Virus record (IMG/VR): IMGVR_UViG_2609459832_000013
Source: a virus
Taxonomy: Duplodnaviria; Heunggongvirae; Uroviricota; Caudoviricetes
Strand: one strand, 5' to 3'
Length of the DNA: 6,121 nt
Numbering within the stretch: the first letter of the stretch is position 1; the number at the start of each line of letters is the position of its first letter. The notes under the pieces are model-generated. The model was not told the DNA's origin and ran no database searches. It saw only the letters and a list, made by a program, of their open reading frames with translations. The position numbers and the translations under genes are program-made. This document shows, piece by piece, positions 1 to 6,121 of this stretch.

Positions 1-117
1 ACAATCATGGAAAAGGCTTACGAAGAATACTTCGAAGGCCTTGCCGAAGGCGAAGAAGCCCTCAGCTTCAGCGAATTTAAACAGGCGCTTTCCAGCCCGG
101 CAAAATCTAACGGCTGA
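1..117 (+). CDS. Hypothetical small acidic protein, probably the 3' end of a gene starting upstream of the window (or a 36-aa ORF from ATG at 7)
   Basis: Open frame from base 1 to TGA at 115-117, followed by a second stop TAA at 118-120. An in-frame ATG sits at 7-9. Same orientation as, and 29 bp upstream of, the next gene. Too little upstream sequence to judge the start or RBS. Confidence 0.4.
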   Translation, partial: TIMEKAYEEYFEGLAEGEEALSFSEFKQALSSPAKSNG

Positions 118-146: not shown

Positions 147-365
147 ATGCAGAAACGAGAACCCGTCATCATCGCGCCAGACTATACCGATGATGAACTT
201 TATGAGTGGATGCACCAGAAAATTAAGGCTGCGCAGGATCTGAAATGGGCCAATGAAGCCAGGGCTAAGCAGGCTGAAAATCTGTCCGCTCTGGAGCAGG
301 ATATCACCAATCTGGAAAAAGCAGCGGCATTAAGCATTGCCAGAATGATTACATACCCACGTTAA
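147..365 (+). CDS. Small protein (72 aa) in the kil slot of a Rac-type early-left operon; tentatively Kil/KilR-like
   Basis: ATG at 147 is preceded by GAGGA (136-140) with a 6-nt spacer; stop TAA at 363-365. It is the first small gene of a co-directional operon leading to exonuclease, xis and int. The Kil assignment rests on size and gene order only and is not verified by alignment. Confidence 0.6.
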   Translation: MQKREPVIIAPDYTDDELYEWMHQKIKAAQDLKWANEARAKQAENLSALEQDITNLEKAAALSIARMITYPR

Positions 366-387
366 TGGTTAACCAACGAGGCTAATA

Positions 388-795
388 ATGGAATTTAAAG
401 ATTTACCAAAAGAAATCCAGACAATTGCTGCAACGACTCTCGGTGATAGTCTGGTGAAAATTGACCCGGCATACACCAAAAAAGAAACCATCGATAATAT
501 GATTCGTAATGTGCGCAATGCTTTTTCAGGGCTATATGGTTCTGATAATCAAAAGCAGGAAAGCGATATTGATGAACGGGTAATTTCTGTTTGCGTGAAT
601 GGTCATGTTATTTCAGCAATCAGAACAGAAACGGCAACTGTTTTTGATTATCTCTGCATGATTCAGAGTCTTGCTGATGCCATGTTTCGTTCAGTGAATT
701 TAGAAAATGATGCAAATCTGCGAGGGCGCACAATAGCACATCCATATGCACATACTTTAGGCTCTGTGGATATCAAAGATCCCACAAATCTTTAA
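388..795 (+). CDS. Hypothetical protein (135 aa), first gene of an AT-rich island
   Basis: ATG at 388 is preceded by GAGG (378-381) with a 6-nt spacer; stop TAA at 793-795. A hand count of the first 60 nt gives about 37% GC, against about 50% in flanking genes. I recognise no domain. Confidence 0.55.
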   Translation: MEFKDLPKEIQTIAATTLGDSLVKIDPAYTKKETIDNMIRNVRNAFSGLYGSDNQKQESDIDERVISVCVNGHVISAIRTETATVFDYLCMIQSLADAMFRSVNLENDANLRGRTIAHPYAHTLGSVDIKDPTNL

Positions 796-1006
796 TGAAA
801 TAGTTAACGCGAATTGTACTTGCTCTTTCAGTTGCTTTCAGAATACGCGTTGAAACTGCTGGCGGTAATTTGGTATTCCATTTATTAAAATCATGCCCGG
901 GAAAGTACTCTTCGAAAATACTTTTAACTGCAGACTCGCCTATTGAAATGCTGCTTACCATGCGATTTTGATAAAGGCATTTAGCAATAAGAGTTGATTT
1001 TAACAT
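773..1006 (-). CDS. Hypothetical protein (77 aa) on the opposite strand, convergent with and overlapping the 3' end of the 135-aa gene by 23 bp
   Basis: On the minus strand the start reads CCTCAGGAGGGTGA-ATG: a consensus AGGAGG Shine-Dalgarno with a 4-nt spacer before ATG (complement of 1004-1006); stop is the complement of 773-775. It is the only credible minus-strand gene in the window and is AT-rich like its partner. Confidence 0.5.
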   Translation of the reverse strand: MLKSTLIAKCLYQNRMVSSISIGESAVKSIFEEYFPGHDFNKWNTKLPPAVSTRILKATERASTIRVNYFIKDLWDL

Positions 1007-1313
1007 TCACCCTCCTGAGGGTTGGTAATTAAGGAGTTCTCCACGGGTGAACATCCGGCACTGACAGTTTACTGAAAGGATATATCCCTGAAAAGTCAGG
1101 GCATAACACGAAAGCGTACGGCGAAGGCCTTCACCTATGAGGCTTGTCGTTAAATTTAATTCGACCGTACGCTTCCGGTTGTGGCAATCCGCGAAATGGC
1201 GCGGCGGTAAGTATGGCGGGGTTATTCCTTCCCCGTTGAGGACACCGGGTTGTCAGGTTGACCATACGCTTAAGTGACAACCCCGCTGCAACAACCCATG
1301 TTGATTACCTTTT

Positions 1314-1353
1314 GGCGGGTATCCGTTTTTTGTTTTCCCTTGTGATACCCGCC
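1314..1353 (+). terminator. Candidate intrinsic-terminator-like hairpin: 10-bp perfect GC-rich stem with a 20-nt loop
   Basis: GGCGGGTATC (1314-1323) pairs perfectly with GATACCCGCC (1344-1353). On the + strand it is followed by CCTTTTAAAG, a short T tract only. The large loop and weak T tract make terminator function uncertain. Confidence 0.25.
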
Positions 1354-1363
1354 CCTTTTAAAG

Positions 1364-1527
1364 TGAATTTTGTGATGCGGTGAATGCGGCTCAGCGCACG
1401 CGGAACAGTTAAAACAAGGCCAGTTGACTTCCGTATTGGTTCTTATGGGTGGGTTCTCTGTATCCGGCGTTAATTGTTAACTGGTTAACGTCACCTGGAG
1501 GCACCAGGCACCGCATCACAAAATTCA
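1364..1527. repeat. Perfect 19-bp inverted repeat whose arms flank a 126-bp segment
   Basis: Left arm TGAATTTTGTGATGCGGTG (1364-1382) is the exact reverse complement of right arm CACCGCATCACAAAATTCA (1509-1527). A tandem near-copy TGAATGCGG (1381-1389) abuts the left arm. The right arm ends 6 nt before the GAGGA Shine-Dalgarno (1533-1537) of the gene starting at 1545. Confidence 0.9.
1469..1489. promoter_or_regulatory. Three direct GTTAA(C) half-site repeats, operator-like
   Basis: GTTAA at 1469-1473, 1476-1480 and 1484-1488 (spacings 7 and 8 bp), inside the segment bounded by the 19-bp inverted repeat. A near-identical two-repeat copy CGTTAATGGTTAAC lies at 360-373, upstream of the ATG at 388. 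Confidence 0.2.
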
Positions 1528-1544
1528 TTGTTGAGGACGCGATA

Positions 1545-1733
1545 ATGGAAACGTTATTACCAAACGTTAATACGTCTGAAGGTTGTTTTGAAATTGGTGT
1601 CACTATCAGTAACCCAGTATTTACTGAAGATGCCATTAACAAGAGAAAACAAGAACGGGAGCTATTAAATAAAATATGCATTGTTTCAATGCTGGCCCGT
1701 TTACGCCTGATGCAAAAAGGATGCTGGCAATGA
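1545..1733 (+). CDS. Hypothetical small protein (62 aa)
   Basis: Internal start of the 1449..1733 track ORF. ATG at 1545 is preceded by GAGGA (1533-1537) with a 7-nt spacer, whereas the ATG at 1449 has no Shine-Dalgarno and would read through the inverted repeat and GTTAA repeats. Stop TGA at 1731-1733 overlaps the next start (ATGA). Confidence 0.5.
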   Translation: METLLPNVNTSEGCFEIGVTISNPVFTEDAINKRKQERELLNKICIVSMLARLRLMQKGCWQ

Positions 1734-1933
1734 ATACTACATTTGCACTTGTTCTGACGGTTTTTCTTGTTTCCGGTGAACCGGTTGACATGGTTACTGG
1801 CGTATACGGCTCAATGAAAGAATGCATGGTTGCCGCAGCGGAACAGAAAATTCCCGGTAACTGTTATCCGGTCGATAAAGTTATTCACATGGATAATAAC
1901 GAAATCCCGGCAGGACTTAAAACAGCACCGTAA
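1730..1933 (+). CDS. Hypothetical small protein (67 aa) with a hydrophobic N-terminal segment (possible signal peptide or membrane anchor) and two cysteines
   Basis: ATG at 1730 overlaps the upstream stop (ATGA at 1730-1733), with AAGGA at 1716-1720; an alternative ATG lies at 1721. The N-terminus reads MNTTFALVLTVFLVSG. Stop TAA at 1931-1933. Confidence 0.5.
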   Translation: MNTTFALVLTVFLVSGEPVDMVTGVYGSMKECMVAAAEQKIPGNCYPVDKVIHMDNNEIPAGLKTAP

Positions 1934-2013: not shown

Positions 2014-4485
2014 ATGAGTAAAGTCTTTATTTGCGCCGCCATTCCGGACGAACAGGCAATAAAGGAAGAAGGTGCAGTCGCTGTAGCCACTGCCATTGAA
2101 GCCGGCGACGAACGTCGCGCCCGTGCCAAATTTACCTGGCAATTCCTGGAGCAATATCCGGCTGCTCAGGACTGCGCTTATAAATTTCTTGTCTGCGAGG
2201 ATAAACCCGGCATGCCCCGCCCTGCCATCGACTCCTGGGATACCGAATATATGCTGGAAAACCGCTGGGATGAGGAAGGCGCTTCCTTTGTCCCGGTCGA
2301 ACCAGAATCCGATCCGATGATCGTCAATTTTGACAAGCTGTCCCTTGAAGTACAGAACGCGGTCCTGGTTAAGTTCGGTACATGTGAAAACATCACCGTT
2401 GATATGGTGATTAGCGCGCAGGAATTGTTGCAGGAAGACATGGCAACATTCGACGGACATATCGTTGAAGCGTTGATGAAAATGCCAGAAGTTAACGCCA
2501 TGTATCCGGAGCTTAAGCTGCATGCCATCGGGTGGGTTAAGCATAAATGTATTCCTGGTGCCAAATGGCCCGAAATTCAGGCAGAGATGCGCATCTGGAA
2601 AAAACGTCGCGAAGGTGAACGCAAGGAAGCCGGAAAATACACGTCTGTTGTTGATCTCGCCCGCGCCAGAGCCAATCAACAGAACACTGAAAATTCAACA
2701 GGAAAAATCAACCCGGTCATTGCTGCCACTCATCGCGAATACAAGCAGACATGGAAAACACTGGATGACGAACTGGCCTACGCTCTCTGGCCTGGTGATG
2801 TGGATGCCGGAAACATTGACGGCAGCATCCATCGCTGGGCAAAAAATGAAGTTATCGACAACGACCGCGAAGACTGGAAGCGTATCTCGGCATCAATGCG
2901 CAAACAGCCTGATGCCCTTCGCTACGACCGCCAGACTATTTTTGGCCTTGTCCGTGAACGTCCGATCGACATTCACAAAGACCCTGTGGCACTGAACAAA
3001 TACATTACTGAATACCTGACTACAAAGGGCGTGTTTGAAGATGAAGGAAGAAATCAGAGCGCAACTGATACTCTCTCGTCGCCAGTACCAGAAACTGATG
3101 CAGTGGAAACGGCAATTCCGGACAACGAAAAAACCGAATGCAAAGTGGAAGTCGAACCATCTGTAGAACGTGAGGGGCCGTTCTACTTCCTCTTCACCGA
3201 CAAGGATGGCGAAAAATACGGTCGCGCAAACAAACTTTCTGGTCTGGATAAGGCGCTGTCTGCCGGGGCTACTGAAATCACGAAAGAAGAATATTTCGCC
3301 CGCAAAAACGGTACATACTCAGGTTCACAACAAAATACTGGTGCATCTGACACGACCGCACAACCAGGGTCAGTAAAAGTTACCGCTGACGAAGTAAACA
3401 ACATTATGCAGGCAGCCAATATCAGCCAGCCTGACGCCGATGAACTGCTTGCAGTATCACGTGGTGAATTTGTTGAAGGGATTAGCGACCCGAATGATCC
3501 GAAATGGGTGAAGGGAATTGAAACCCGCGATTCTGTGAACCAGAACCAGCAAGAAACGGAACAGAACGGCCAGAAAGCGGATCAAAACAGCCCAAATACG
3601 CAACAAAACGAGCCAGAAACGAAACAATCCGAACCAGTAGCGCAACAGGAACCGGAAAAGATCTGCACCGCCTGCGGTCAGACCGGCGGCGGCAACTGCC
3701 CTGATTGTGGCGCGATGATGGGCGACGCAACATACCAGGAAACGTTCGATGACGAGAATCAGGTCGAAGTTCAGGAAGACAATTCGGAGAAAATGGAAGG
3801 CGCTGAACATCCACACAAGGAGAATGCTGGCAGCGCTCAGGACCACGCCAGCGATAGTGAAACTGGCGAGACGGCAGATCCCTTAATTGCGGTGAACAGT
3901 CATCACATTATCACATCCACCAGCAGAGTGTGGACTCACCTGTCGGTCGACCTTGAAACGATGGGAACAAATCCTGATGCACCAATCAACTCTATTGGCG
4001 GTAAATTCTTTGACCCGACAACCGGAGAGATGGGGCCGGAATTCAGCAAAGCTATCGATCTGGAAACATCTGGCGGAATCATCGACCGGAAAACAATAAA
4101 GTGGTGGGCGAAGCGATCACGCGAAGCGCAATCTGCCATTTTTACCGATGAAATCCCGTTAGATGACGCTCTACTGCAATTACGGGAATTTATCAACGAA
4201 AACTCCGGCGAAAGCTTTGTCCAGATCTGGGGAAATGGAGCCAACTTCGACAATGTGATTTTACGCCGTTCATATGAACGGCAGGGGATCCCCTGCCCGT
4301 GGCGTTACTACAACGATCGCGATGTGCGCACAATTGTTGAACTGGGAAATTCCATTGGCTTTGATGTCAGAATGGCTATTCCATTCGAAGGTGTACCCCA
4401 CAATGCACTTGATGATGCACGTCACCAGGCAAAACAAGTTTCAGCAATCTGGCAAAAACTGATCCCAAGTCAGGCTGATTTTTAA
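2014..4485 (+). CDS. Large prophage exonuclease (823 aa): RecE-like (exonuclease VIII-like) non-catalytic scaffold fused to a C-terminal DnaQ-like DEDDh 3'-5' exonuclease domain
   Basis: Single 2472-nt ORF with TGAGG upstream of ATG 2014. The C-terminal ~180 aa carry the three DEDDh motifs: LSVDLETMG (3940-3966), WGNGANFD (4228-4251) and HNALDDARH (4399-4425). A Q/N/E-rich linker (~3535-3660) precedes a C-x2-C-x7-C-x2-C zinc ribbon (3664-3708). The central segment (ASRGEFVEGISDPNDPKWVKG, CxxC region) resembles my recollection of E. coli Rac RecE; this is not verified by alignment. Confidence 0.9.
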   Translation: MSKVFICAAIPDEQAIKEEGAVAVATAIEAGDERRARAKFTWQFLEQYPAAQDCAYKFLVCEDKPGMPRPAIDSWDTEYMLENRWDEEGASFVPVEPESDPMIVNFDKLSLEVQNAVLVKFGTCENITVDMVISAQELLQEDMATFDGHIVEALMKMPEVNAMYPELKLHAIGWVKHKCIPGAKWPEIQAEMRIWKKRREGERKEAGKYTSVVDLARARANQQNTENSTGKINPVIAATHREYKQTWKTLDDELAYALWPGDVDAGNIDGSIHRWAKNEVIDNDREDWKRISASMRKQPDALRYDRQTIFGLVRERPIDIHKDPVALNKYITEYLTTKGVFEDEGRNQSATDTLSSPVPETDAVETAIPDNEKTECKVEVEPSVEREGPFYFLFTDKDGEKYGRANKLSGLDKALSAGATEITKEEYFARKNGTYSGSQQNTGASDTTAQPGSVKVTADEVNNIMQAANISQPDADELLAVSRGEFVEGISDPNDPKWVKGIETRDSVNQNQQETEQNGQKADQNSPNTQQNEPETKQSEPVAQQEPEKICTACGQTGGGNCPDCGAMMGDATYQETFDDENQVEVQEDNSEKMEGAEHPHKENAGSAQDHASDSETGETADPLIAVNSHHIITSTSRVWTHLSVDLETMGTNPDAPINSIGGKFFDPTTGEMGPEFSKAIDLETSGGIIDRKTIKWWAKRSREAQSAIFTDEIPLDDALLQLREFINENSGESFVQIWGNGANFDNVILRRSYERQGIPCPWRYYNDRDVRTIVELGNSIGFDVRMAIPFEGVPHNALDDARHQAKQVSAIWQKLIPSQADF

Positions 4486-4554: not shown

Positions 4555-4806
4555 ATGAGCGAAGTAATCATGATTGTCTCTCCCGGTAAATGGGTATCCG
4601 AAGAACAGCTAATTGCACTGAAAGGAATAAAAAAGGGAACGCTAAAAAAAGCCAGGGAAAAATCGTTTATGGAAGGAAGGGAGTATAAGCATGTCGCCCA
4701 TGACTGTATGCCATGGGATAACAGCCCATGCTTTTACAACCTGGAAGAAATTGACCGCTGGATTGAGCGCCAGGCATCGGCAAGACCAAGACGTCATCTT
4801 ACCTGA
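4555..4806 (+). CDS. xis: Excisionase-like small DNA-binding protein (83 aa)
   Basis: Small basic ORF directly upstream of the integrase in the same orientation. It contains a G-R-E-Y motif (MEGREYKH) like the lambda Xis DGREY region. The start is uncertain: 4555 has a weak Shine-Dalgarno and an alternative ATG lies at 4570. Confidence 0.7.
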   Translation: MSEVIMIVSPGKWVSEEQLIALKGIKKGTLKKAREKSFMEGREYKHVAHDCMPWDNSPCFYNLEEIDRWIERQASARPRRHLT

Positions 4807-4840: not shown

Positions 4841-6121
4841 ATGAAATATCCGACAGGCGTGGAAAACCATGGAGGGAAATTACGTATCTGGTTTGTTTAT
4901 AAAGGTGTAAGAATCAGGGAAAATCTTGGGGTTCCTGACACGGCAAAAAACAGGCGCATTGCAGGTGAGCTGCGCGCCTCTGTTTGTTACGCAATAAAAA
5001 CTGGTGTTTTCGACTATGCAAAACAGTTTCCCTCCTCACACAATCTGGAAAAATTTGGTGAGGCCCGACAAGATTTAACCATAAAGGAACTGGCTGAAAA
5101 ATTTCTGGCACTGAAAGAAACGGAAGTCGCAAAAACGTCACTCAACACGTACCGTGCCGTCATCAAAAATATTCTGAGCATAATCGGTGAAAAAAATCTT
5201 GCATCGTCGATTAATAAAGAAAAATTGCTGGCGGTACGTAAAGAGTTACTTACTGGATACCAGATCCCCAAAAGTAATTATATTGTTACGCAACCGGGGA
5301 GATCGGCTGTCACCGTAAATAATTACATGACAAATCTTTACGCCGTGTTCCAGTTTGGTGTTGATAACGGTTACCTGGCAGATAATCCGTTTAAGGGGAT
5401 CTCGCCATTAAAGGAATCAAGAACCATTCCTGATCCTCTTTCACGGGAGGAATTTATCCGTCTTATCGACGCCTGCAGAAATCAGCAGGCCAAAAATTTA
5501 TGGTGTGTTTCTGTTTATACTGGCGTTCGCCCTGGTGAGCTGTGTGCACTTGGGTGGGAGGACATAGATCTGAAAAATGGAACAATGATGATCAGGAGAA
5601 ATTTAGCAAAAGATCGTTTTACGGTACCGAAAACACAGGCTGGTACCAATCGGGTAATTCACCTTATCAAGCCTGCAATCGACGCTCTCAGGAGTCAGAT
5701 GACACTAACGAGGCTGAGCAAAGAACATATTATTGACGTTCACCTCAGAGAGTTTGGCAGAACGGAAAAACAAAAATGCACATTTGTTTTTCAACCTGAA
5801 GTGTCAGCGAGAGTAAAAAATTATGGTGACCATTTCACCGTTGACTCAATAAGGCAGATGTGGGACGCAGCGATAAAGCGCGCTGGCCTCCGCCACCGCA
5901 AATCATATCAGTCGAGACATACTTATGCCTGCTGGTCGCTGACAGCCGGTGCCAACCCGGCATTCATAGCAAACCAGATGGGACATGCAGATGCGCAAAT
6001 GGTGTTTCAGGTATACGGGAAATGGATGTCTGAAAACAATAATGCACAGGTAGCCCTGTTAAATACACAGCTAAGCGAGTTTGCCCCAACCATGCCCCAA
6101 AACGAGGCGGCGCAAAATTAA
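4841..6121 (+). CDS. int: Phage tyrosine integrase (site-specific recombinase, 426 aa), IntR/Rac-like lambdoid family
   Basis: ATG at 4841 preceded by GAGAGAAG; stop TAA at 6119-6121. The C-terminal catalytic region carries tyrosine-recombinase hallmarks: TGVRPGE (Arg I), SRHTYACW (box II Arg), QMGH (His) and the nucleophile Tyr in QVYGKW. The N-terminus (MKYPTGVENHGGKLRIWF) looks like an arm-type DNA-binding domain. Confidence 0.95.
   Translation: MKYPTGVENHGGKLRIWFVYKGVRIRENLGVPDTAKNRRIAGELRASVCYAIKTGVFDYAKQFPSSHNLEKFGEARQDLTIKELAEKFLALKETEVAKTSLNTYRAVIKNILSIIGEKNLASSINKEKLLAVRKELLTGYQIPKSNYIVTQPGRSAVTVNNYMTNLYAVFQFGVDNGYLADNPFKGISPLKESRTIPDPLSREEFIRLIDACRNQQAKNLWCVSVYTGVRPGELCALGWEDIDLKNGTMMIRRNLAKDRFTVPKTQAGTNRVIHLIKPAIDALRSQMTLTRLSKEHIIDVHLREFGRTEKQKCTFVFQPEVSARVKNYGDHFTVDSIRQMWDAAIKRAGLRHRKSYQSRHTYACWSLTAGANPAFIANQMGHADAQMVFQVYGKWMSENNNAQVALLNTQLSEFAPTMPQNEAAQN

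Follow-up and report, generated by a model that had tools for sequence, protein, structure and literature searches.

Two convergent small genes with overlapping 3' ends form a conserved, co-inherited unit in prophages of at least ten genera

What is the relationship between two small phage genes that run towards each other and share their last codons? The question is raised by a 6,121-nucleotide (nt) stretch of DNA from a tailed virus (Caudoviricetes; IMG/VR record IMGVR_UViG_2609459832_000013), hereafter the window, in which a 135-amino-acid (aa) plus-strand gene, orf135, faces a 77-aa minus-strand gene, orf77, within an AT-rich block referred to below as the island. An initial annotation made from the sequence alone had placed both open reading frames (ORFs) and their 23-nt overlap correctly (Table 1) and had proposed that they form an undescribed two-gene system. 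That core idea is supported by the analysis presented here, which refines it with regard to the unit itself, its genomic context and its description as a moron. The two families are uncharacterised, and together they make up a conserved, co-inherited two-gene unit in prophages of at least ten genera. The unit is not the pair as first drawn, however, since sequence comparisons show orf77 to be truly partnered only by the C-terminal ~78 residues of orf135 (the partner domain), residues 1-55 being a separate module.

The conclusion of co-inheritance is carried by the regularity of the arrangement. A convergent partner faces orf77 in 98 of 101 orf77 loci, representing 47 distinct sequence pairs, and the length of the overlap among these loci is 23 nt in 92, 26 nt in three and 51 nt in two. 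Exceptions are L088, a locus truncated at its end, and two loci in which orf77 is broken (L023 and L104), to which can be added a Psychrosphaera homologue, 43% identical, in a non-phage setting. The pair was verified in Escherichia, Dickeya, Serratia, Klebsiella, Yersinia, Erwinia, Citrobacter, Leclercia, Proteus and Photorhabdus, and across these ten genera it is retained at 55-70% protein identity while its flanking genes vary. When loci of the partner family were inspected in Erwinia, Leclercia and Citrobacter, an orf77-family gene was found opposite in every one. The 23-nt overlap is a quasi-palindrome (ATCAAAGAT...ATCTTTAAT) in which the stop codon of either gene is antisense to Ile-Lys codons of the other. 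A bidirectional intrinsic terminator in the overlap was considered and rejected, the hairpins being weak (-5.5 and -9.0 kcal/mol) and lacking a U-tract or T-run. Strict pairing and the 23-base overlap appear to mark one functional unit tied to the switch between dormancy and growth. It is improbable that two unrelated accessory genes co-travel through tight packing, their overlap a by-product of compaction with no functional coupling. Such an explanation would accommodate the existence of orf77 relatives that stand alone, described below, as well as E. coli recombination joints that fall exactly at the orf77 stop (orf135 residue ~128) and at the orf77 ATG, as in a separable cassette, and the interaction of the two proteins is something we infer; against it stand the retention of the pair at this level of identity in ten genera with different flanks, the constancy of the overlap and the presence of an orf77-family gene opposite each partner gene inspected.

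Both ORFs are regarded as real genes because both are under purifying selection, orf77 has a confidently predicted fold and its profile gathers 163 clusters of homologues. In diverged lineages the median pairwise ratio of nonsynonymous to synonymous substitution rates (dN/dS) stands at 0.19 for orf77, compared with 0.40 for the partner domain. The AlphaFold model of the orf77 protein consists of five helices, with a predicted local distance difference test score (pLDDT) of 96.8, and the protein is not predicted to lie in a membrane. It matches PHROG 10348, a family of 'unknown function', over its entire length (residues 1-77 of 77; E 1.1e-47). There are 33 clusters of close homologues, and homologues of exactly 77 aa with 55-72% identity occur in Klebsiella, Dickeya, Xenorhabdus, Morganella, Yersinia, Serratia and Salmonella; the 163 clusters of distant homologues (clustered at 50% identity, nearly all of 75-80 aa) came from a profile search of 1.84 billion representatives. 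Single-protein scans for distant orf77 relatives matched no viral contigs. Homologues without a partner hit occur in 41 distant viral contigs, beside terminase and HNH genes, suggesting that orf77 is able to work alone. This partnerless clade (IMG/VR contigs L108-L148; for example L133, 3001-3228) is of high guanine-plus-cytosine (GC) content, and its 75-aa orf77 homologues adjoin genes for a terminase small-subunit-like protein and an HNH endonuclease, with a PIN/VapC-like gene close by.

The orf135 protein is modelled as two domains separated by a disordered linker at residues 50-60 (AlphaFold, mean pLDDT 73), the C-terminal domain combining a beta-hairpin with helices at block-mean pLDDT values of 74-90 over residues 61-130. 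Its gene is preceded by GAGG at 378-381, 6 nt ahead of the ATG. The protein matches PHROG 1363 over residues 1-130 (E 1.2e-43) and PHROG 23433 over residues 58-128 (E 1.1e-09), both of 'unknown function'. In other genera the partner domain is a stand-alone protein of 75-80 aa that aligns with orf135 residues ~58-135, and the N-module is joined in E. coli to unrelated C-termini as well. A partner-domain profile collected 94 proteins, for example from Serratia, Klebsiella, Raoultella, Hafnia, Citrobacter, Erwinia, Enterobacter, Leclercia and Yersinia, and the domain is characterised by the motif VNG...T.TA..DY...LE.EAN..G.TI.H. Reading a conserved ASGKT stretch as a Walker-A motif was rejected, given a variable lysine (GRT in the window), the wrong spacing and too small a domain, and charge complementarity of orf77 and its partner was likewise rejected as inconsistent across lineages. 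The partner domain is also found in fusions: a 191-aa Yersinia protein (L015, 5212-5787) joins a YdfC-like part (PHROG 1744, residues 28-88) to PHROG 23433 (residues 116-188), and a 139-aa protein of Citrobacter combines the domain with a ClpX C4-type zinc finger. These fusions (proteins P0151-P0156) tie ydfC, which in the window lies immediately upstream, to the module.

Searches for function returned family membership only. Significant full-length profile matches place orf77 in PHROG 10348 and orf135 in PHROG 1363, with PHROG 23433 for the partner domain; these are the same families, and they have no assigned function. Neither orf77 nor orf135 gave anything significant against Pfam, NCBIfam, PADLOC or the PDB at the level of sequence, profile or fold, and no known toxin domain matched the orf135 C-terminal domain. 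When the orf77 model was compared with BFVD by Foldseek, the sole match was an uncharacterised member of its own family. The initial statement that neither protein belongs to a recognised family thus holds, the PHROGs of unknown function being the only families matched and the Foldseek check giving no characterised analogue. Within the library searched, literature searches with ydfC, the RefSeq protein accessions and the PHROG numbers yielded nothing on the orf77/orf135 genes. The arrangement also differs from those of toxin-antitoxin loci: type II systems form a co-transcribed operon in which the antitoxin gene usually comes first, whereas the genes here are convergent in 98 of 98 paired loci and have no homology to a known toxin or antitoxin fold, and in place of the non-coding antitoxin of type I systems both strands encode conserved proteins with the dN/dS values given above.

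The position of the pair relative to the phage repressor was examined outside E. coli, where a cI-type repressor gene immediately precedes it and the partner shares the repressor/early-left strand. The cI-cro spacer of Klebsiella L012 contains two copies of the palindrome ACAGWTWAAACTGT (5492-5529), and two more, overlapping TTGACC-18-TATTAT, lie between the cI terminator and the partner (6291-6350); the recurring operator-like element of this locus is a 16-mer. Sequences of the cI-cro spacer also recur before the partner in Citrobacter L018 (a 16-mer) and Serratia L005 (a 15-mer), and these shared 15-16-mers are phage-specific. Operator-like repeats before the partner therefore identify it, outside E. 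coli and where checked, as the first gene of a repressor-controlled early-left promoter. The ACAGWTWAAACTGT copies define OR and OL for the L012 immunity type. In Serratia L005 a 307-aa gene (6713-7636, minus strand) lies between cI and the partner/orf77 pair, and because it matches the PADLOC candidate family PDC-S42 (E 1e-85) a candidate defence gene adjoins the module in this locus.

A second promoter is predicted on the opposing strand. In approximately 10 of 14 non-E. coli lineages the region upstream of orf77 contains TTCACC, a CCAC..GTGG inverted repeat and TGGTATCTT, which reads as an extended -10, and these elements are shared although the immunity regions differ. Outside E. coli, orf77 would thus have its own conserved extended -10 promoter pointing against the early-left operon. 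Control of this promoter by cI was rejected, the promoter-proximal inverted repeat being identical in prophages with different operators. There is no terminator between the two genes, nor after them within the window block. As none separates the genes, early-left transcription must cross orf77 and its promoter antisense in order to reach the downstream early genes, and transcription from the orf77 promoter must enter the partner gene antisense. Convergent promoters produce transcriptional interference in other temperate phages, the pR/pL promoters of coliphage 186 being an example, and the pair adjoins the immunity region and OL/PL. On these grounds the pair might serve the prophage's own regulation, for example as an auxiliary switch for tuning early-left transcription or the stability of the repressor or CII, its proteins acting on phage regulators rather than on competitors and orf77 transcription damping leaky early-left expression; an operator-like inverted repeat in the orf77 promoter across immunity types would fit autoregulation by a protein of the module. 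We consider a purely regulatory role of the pair quite unlikely.

The E. coli copies occupy a different setting. The early-left arm covered by the window belongs to a lambdoid prophage of the Qin/dicB type, not to the Rac-like one first assigned. Both neighbours first named for the island need correction: the left one, called a kil-slot gene, is ydfC, and the right-hand one is a dicF-like leader followed by dicB, with the exonuclease gene 1 kb further on. A 96%-identical RefSeq locus has the identical gene order behind a dicA-like repressor gene, and there the 77-aa gene is the sole annotated gene opposing the operon, as had been claimed. The Qin prophage of E. coli K-12 lacks the 634-bp block: by blastn of the window against the K-12 locus (L002), K-12 is colinear with the window to position 385 and again from 1020, which sets the island edges exactly, and the K-12 joint is unbroken, GCTAA being followed directly by GGTTAGTAATTAAGGAG. 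This presence/absence comparison bears out the proposed insertion relative to K-12. The low GC content was also confirmed, at 38.3% (386-1019) compared with 48.6% to the left (1-385) and 49.5% to the right (1020-1544), and the orf77/partner pair is lower in GC than its flanks in 16 of 16 lineages checked. The island is carried by 676 of 5426 complete E. coli genomes, approximately one in eight, including Shiga-toxin strains (O157:H7, O121:H19 and O111:H8), and by 12 deposited phage records (PPompW prophages and phage Evi); its genes are annotated in E. coli invariably as 'hypothetical protein (x2)'. Lambdoid morons, as described by Hendrix and colleagues, are extra low-GC blocks absent from close relatives. 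In the layout first proposed for the island the insertion between conserved neighbours, the deviating base composition and the gene opposing the operon all correspond to a moron; the remaining part of that description did not stand, as a promoter scan and terminator check of the window island found no promoter and terminator of its own within the block, which moreover also holds an operon-sense gene.

In E. coli the slot between ydfA/ydfC and the dicF leader is polymorphic, being either empty, as in K-12, or filled by one of at least four cassettes (Table 1). All four encode the same MEFKDLP N-module, each facing a different small convergent ORF. The C-domains of three cassettes are unrelated, and orf201 retains the partner domain with a 73-residue extension. 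All slot-allele proteins belong to PHROGs of unknown function. The four alleles therefore display the pattern of polymorphic toxin-immunity loci, with a conserved N-part, a variable C-domain and a varying small gene, a pattern that could also come from linkage alone.

We tentatively propose, as a possibility that falls short of being probable, that orf77 is a lysogen-phase effector and its partner an early antidote, the two constituting an accessory module wired to the lysogeny/lysis switch. In a repressed prophage only orf77 would be made, and as an effector of the lysogenic phase it would exclude other phages or stabilise lysogeny. Upon derepression or infection, early-left transcription would read across all of orf77, promoter included, in antisense, turning orf77 off and producing the partner, which would bind and neutralise the pre-existing orf77 protein. 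Mutually exclusive expression would in this way be combined with antagonism between the proteins. The effector role is assigned to orf77 because its partnerless relatives are found in 41 contigs and because the partner would be made first on derepression. In the window the partner domain is fused to the 55-residue N-module and lies within the dicB operon, which is DicA-repressed in the lysogen (PMC5069750). In broader terms, the pair probably has a role in conflict between phages or between phage and host, or else in the control of induction, and the module is best described as a variation on known prophage conflict/accessory modules made from two protein families without known relatives.

Several points weigh against orf77 as effector and its partner as antidote. 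The assignment of polarity is a guess, and in E. coli the layout of variable C-domain and small ORF looks more like a toxin with its immunity protein, that is, the opposite polarity. None of the defence-protein models of PADLOC-DB 2.0 was matched by orf135 or orf77, by a distant homologue of orf77, by the stand-alone partner or by the remaining slot alleles, and the superinfection-exclusion, toxin-antitoxin and anti-defence roles first suggested are conjectural; no structural analogue of either fold was found, so that structure offers no functional lead. Decay is seen in both directions, orf135 being frameshifted beside an intact orf77 in L149/L150 and orf77 broken beside an intact partner in L023/L104, which does not discriminate among the explanations. 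Finally, the conserved orf77 promoter is absent from the window copy, where the island reaches just 13 nt upstream of the orf77 start codon and the promoter scan found no sigma-70 match of at least 9/12 upstream. The last of these points would also fit a window orf77 that is a silent passenger, intact but deprived of its promoter, with only orf135 mattering in the E. coli copy, an account to which we give little credence. Among E. coli prophages whose orf135 diverges by ~9%, orf77 has stayed intact with hardly any variation; compared with O157:H7, the window has one synonymous change in orf77 and 21 differing sites in the partner domain. The Shine-Dalgarno sequence AGGAGG is kept at consensus 4 nt ahead of the orf77 ATG (1006), as first annotated, and the stretch containing it, CTCAGGAGGGTGA (1007-1019), also precedes the unrelated 63-aa minus-strand ORF of the orf201 allele, from which it can be argued that the minus-strand genes of the slot use a common expression context. 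A shared promoter in the backbone is indicated, since the ribosome-binding context is common to different minus-strand ORFs and orf77 has been kept intact. A weak minus-strand candidate in backbone DNA (Table 1) lies below the threshold of the scan and is found in K-12 too, which has no minus-strand gene.

The polymorphic slot also raises the reverse polarity, in which the C-domain of the early-left gene would be a lytic effector (for host take-over, anti-defence or toxicity) and the convergent gene a constitutive immunity protein or inhibitor of the lysogen. This is unlikely in our estimation, yet nearly as likely as the polarity we propose. The existence of at least four alleles with a toxin-immunity-like layout points in this direction, as does the faster evolution of the partner domain relative to orf77, and dicB and dicF of the same operon are toxic upon expression (PMC5069750). 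Conversely, distant phages commonly carry orf77 homologues alone, which would be odd for an immunity protein, the loci with a broken orf77 (L023 and L104) retain an intact partner, and the co-variation in E. coli has linkage alone as an alternative source. The layout further resembles that of pore-forming colicin operons (colicins A, E1 and Ia), whose immunity gene runs towards the SOS-controlled colicin gene. In both cases the repressed gene combines a conserved N-part with a variable C-domain, and opposite it, on the other strand, lies a small gene that would be expressed during repression of the large one. The two differ in that there is no similarity of sequence or fold, orf77, unlike the immunity proteins of pore-formers, is not predicted to lie in a membrane, and colicin operons reside on plasmids under LexA whereas the present pair resides in a prophage early operon under a phage repressor.

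With orf77 as lysogen-phase effector, the closest parallels are prophage defence functions encoded beside the repressor gene, such as BstA/aba of phage BTP1, RexAB of lambda and Nun of HK022. The likeness to BstA/aba consists of an accessory function beside the immunity region and of the proposed logic, a lysogen-phase protein neutralised by the phage's own lytic programme. BstA, however, is a single protein of ~300 aa and aba a DNA element, whereas here two small convergent proteins of new families are involved, for which a defence role is only proposed and PADLOC gave no match. RalR/RalA of Rac and hok/sok are type I toxin-antitoxin loci with overlapping convergent transcripts; they share with the present pair 3'-overlapping convergent units in a cryptic prophage and the expectation of antisense pairing, but consist of a protein and a small RNA (sRNA), whereas the present pair is made up of two conserved proteins, each under purifying selection. 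It is rather doubtful, though worth stating, that the pair is the founding example of polymorphic convergent effector-antidote cassettes that occupy the first early-left position in lambdoid prophages across Enterobacterales. If so, orf201/orf63, orf212/orf69 and orf179/orf80 would be further specificities of one system, and two new folds would be expressed mutually exclusively according to repressor state, the first early protein disarming a lysogen-phase weapon. Among small phage genes annotated as 'hypothetical' the pair stands out through its strict pairing, fixed overlap, position at a repressor-controlled promoter and alternative cassettes. Both proteins are small and without structural relatives, orf77 being confidently and the partner domain moderately well modelled, and a solution of their function would add new families and possibly a new coupling of function to the lysogeny switch.

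The remaining features of the window and the E. coli slot cassettes are listed in Table 1.

Table 1. Positions of the convergent pair, its surroundings in the window and the alternative E. coli cassettes
Feature	Sequence	Position	Strand	Description
ydfB 3' end	window	7-117		
ydfC	window	147-365	+	PHROG 1744; directly upstream of island
Island	window	386-1019		634 bp, AT-rich
orf135	window	388-795	+	135 aa; same direction as DicA-repressed dicB operon
N-terminal module of orf135	window	388-552	+	residues 1-55, MEFKDLP..., predicted helical hairpin
Partner domain of orf135	window	553-795	+	residues ~56-135; from alignments, homologues and PHROG 23433
orf135/orf77 3' overlap	window	773-795		23 nt
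orf77	window	773-1006	-	77 aa
orf77 Shine-Dalgarno	window	1011-1016	-	AGGAGG
Untranslated leader	window	1020-1544		holds dicF in K-12
Weak candidate promoter (speculative)	window	1066-1094	-	TTTTCA-17-TAAACT, 8/12, backbone DNA
dicB	window	1545-1733		Pfam DicB, E 3e-40
DUF1482/ydfD gene	window	1730-1933		
Exonuclease	window	2014-4485		823 aa
Excisionase	window	4555-4806		
Integrase	window	4841-6121		
orf201/orf63	L009	4001-4775		23-nt 3' overlap
orf212/orf69	L105	2501-3349		3' ends abutting
orf179/orf80	L106	2501-3263		20-nt 3' overlap

Elements resembling sRNAs were observed in the leader and upstream of dicB. At the dicF position (1296-1365), GGCGGGTATC (1314-1323) and GATACCCGCC (1345-1354) pair, and CCTTTT comes next, an end that resembles the DicF terminator, and the 5' part has diverged from K-12 DicF. 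Rfam did not recognise this element even from 111 nt of sequence; possibly it represents a DicF variant whose targeting region differs. Just upstream of dicB, Rfam aligned window positions 1366-1522 with STnc100, a Salmonella sRNA family, but the score of 33.7 bits (E 1.3e-4) falls short of the gathering score, 47. The leader itself is nearly identical to K-12 over approximately 1158-1292 and exactly so over 1188-1292, compared with 86-96% for neighbouring coding DNA. The stretch 1158-1296 also occurs alone and unannotated in another E. coli chromosome (hit H24), and may be a structured or processed RNA upstream of dicF.
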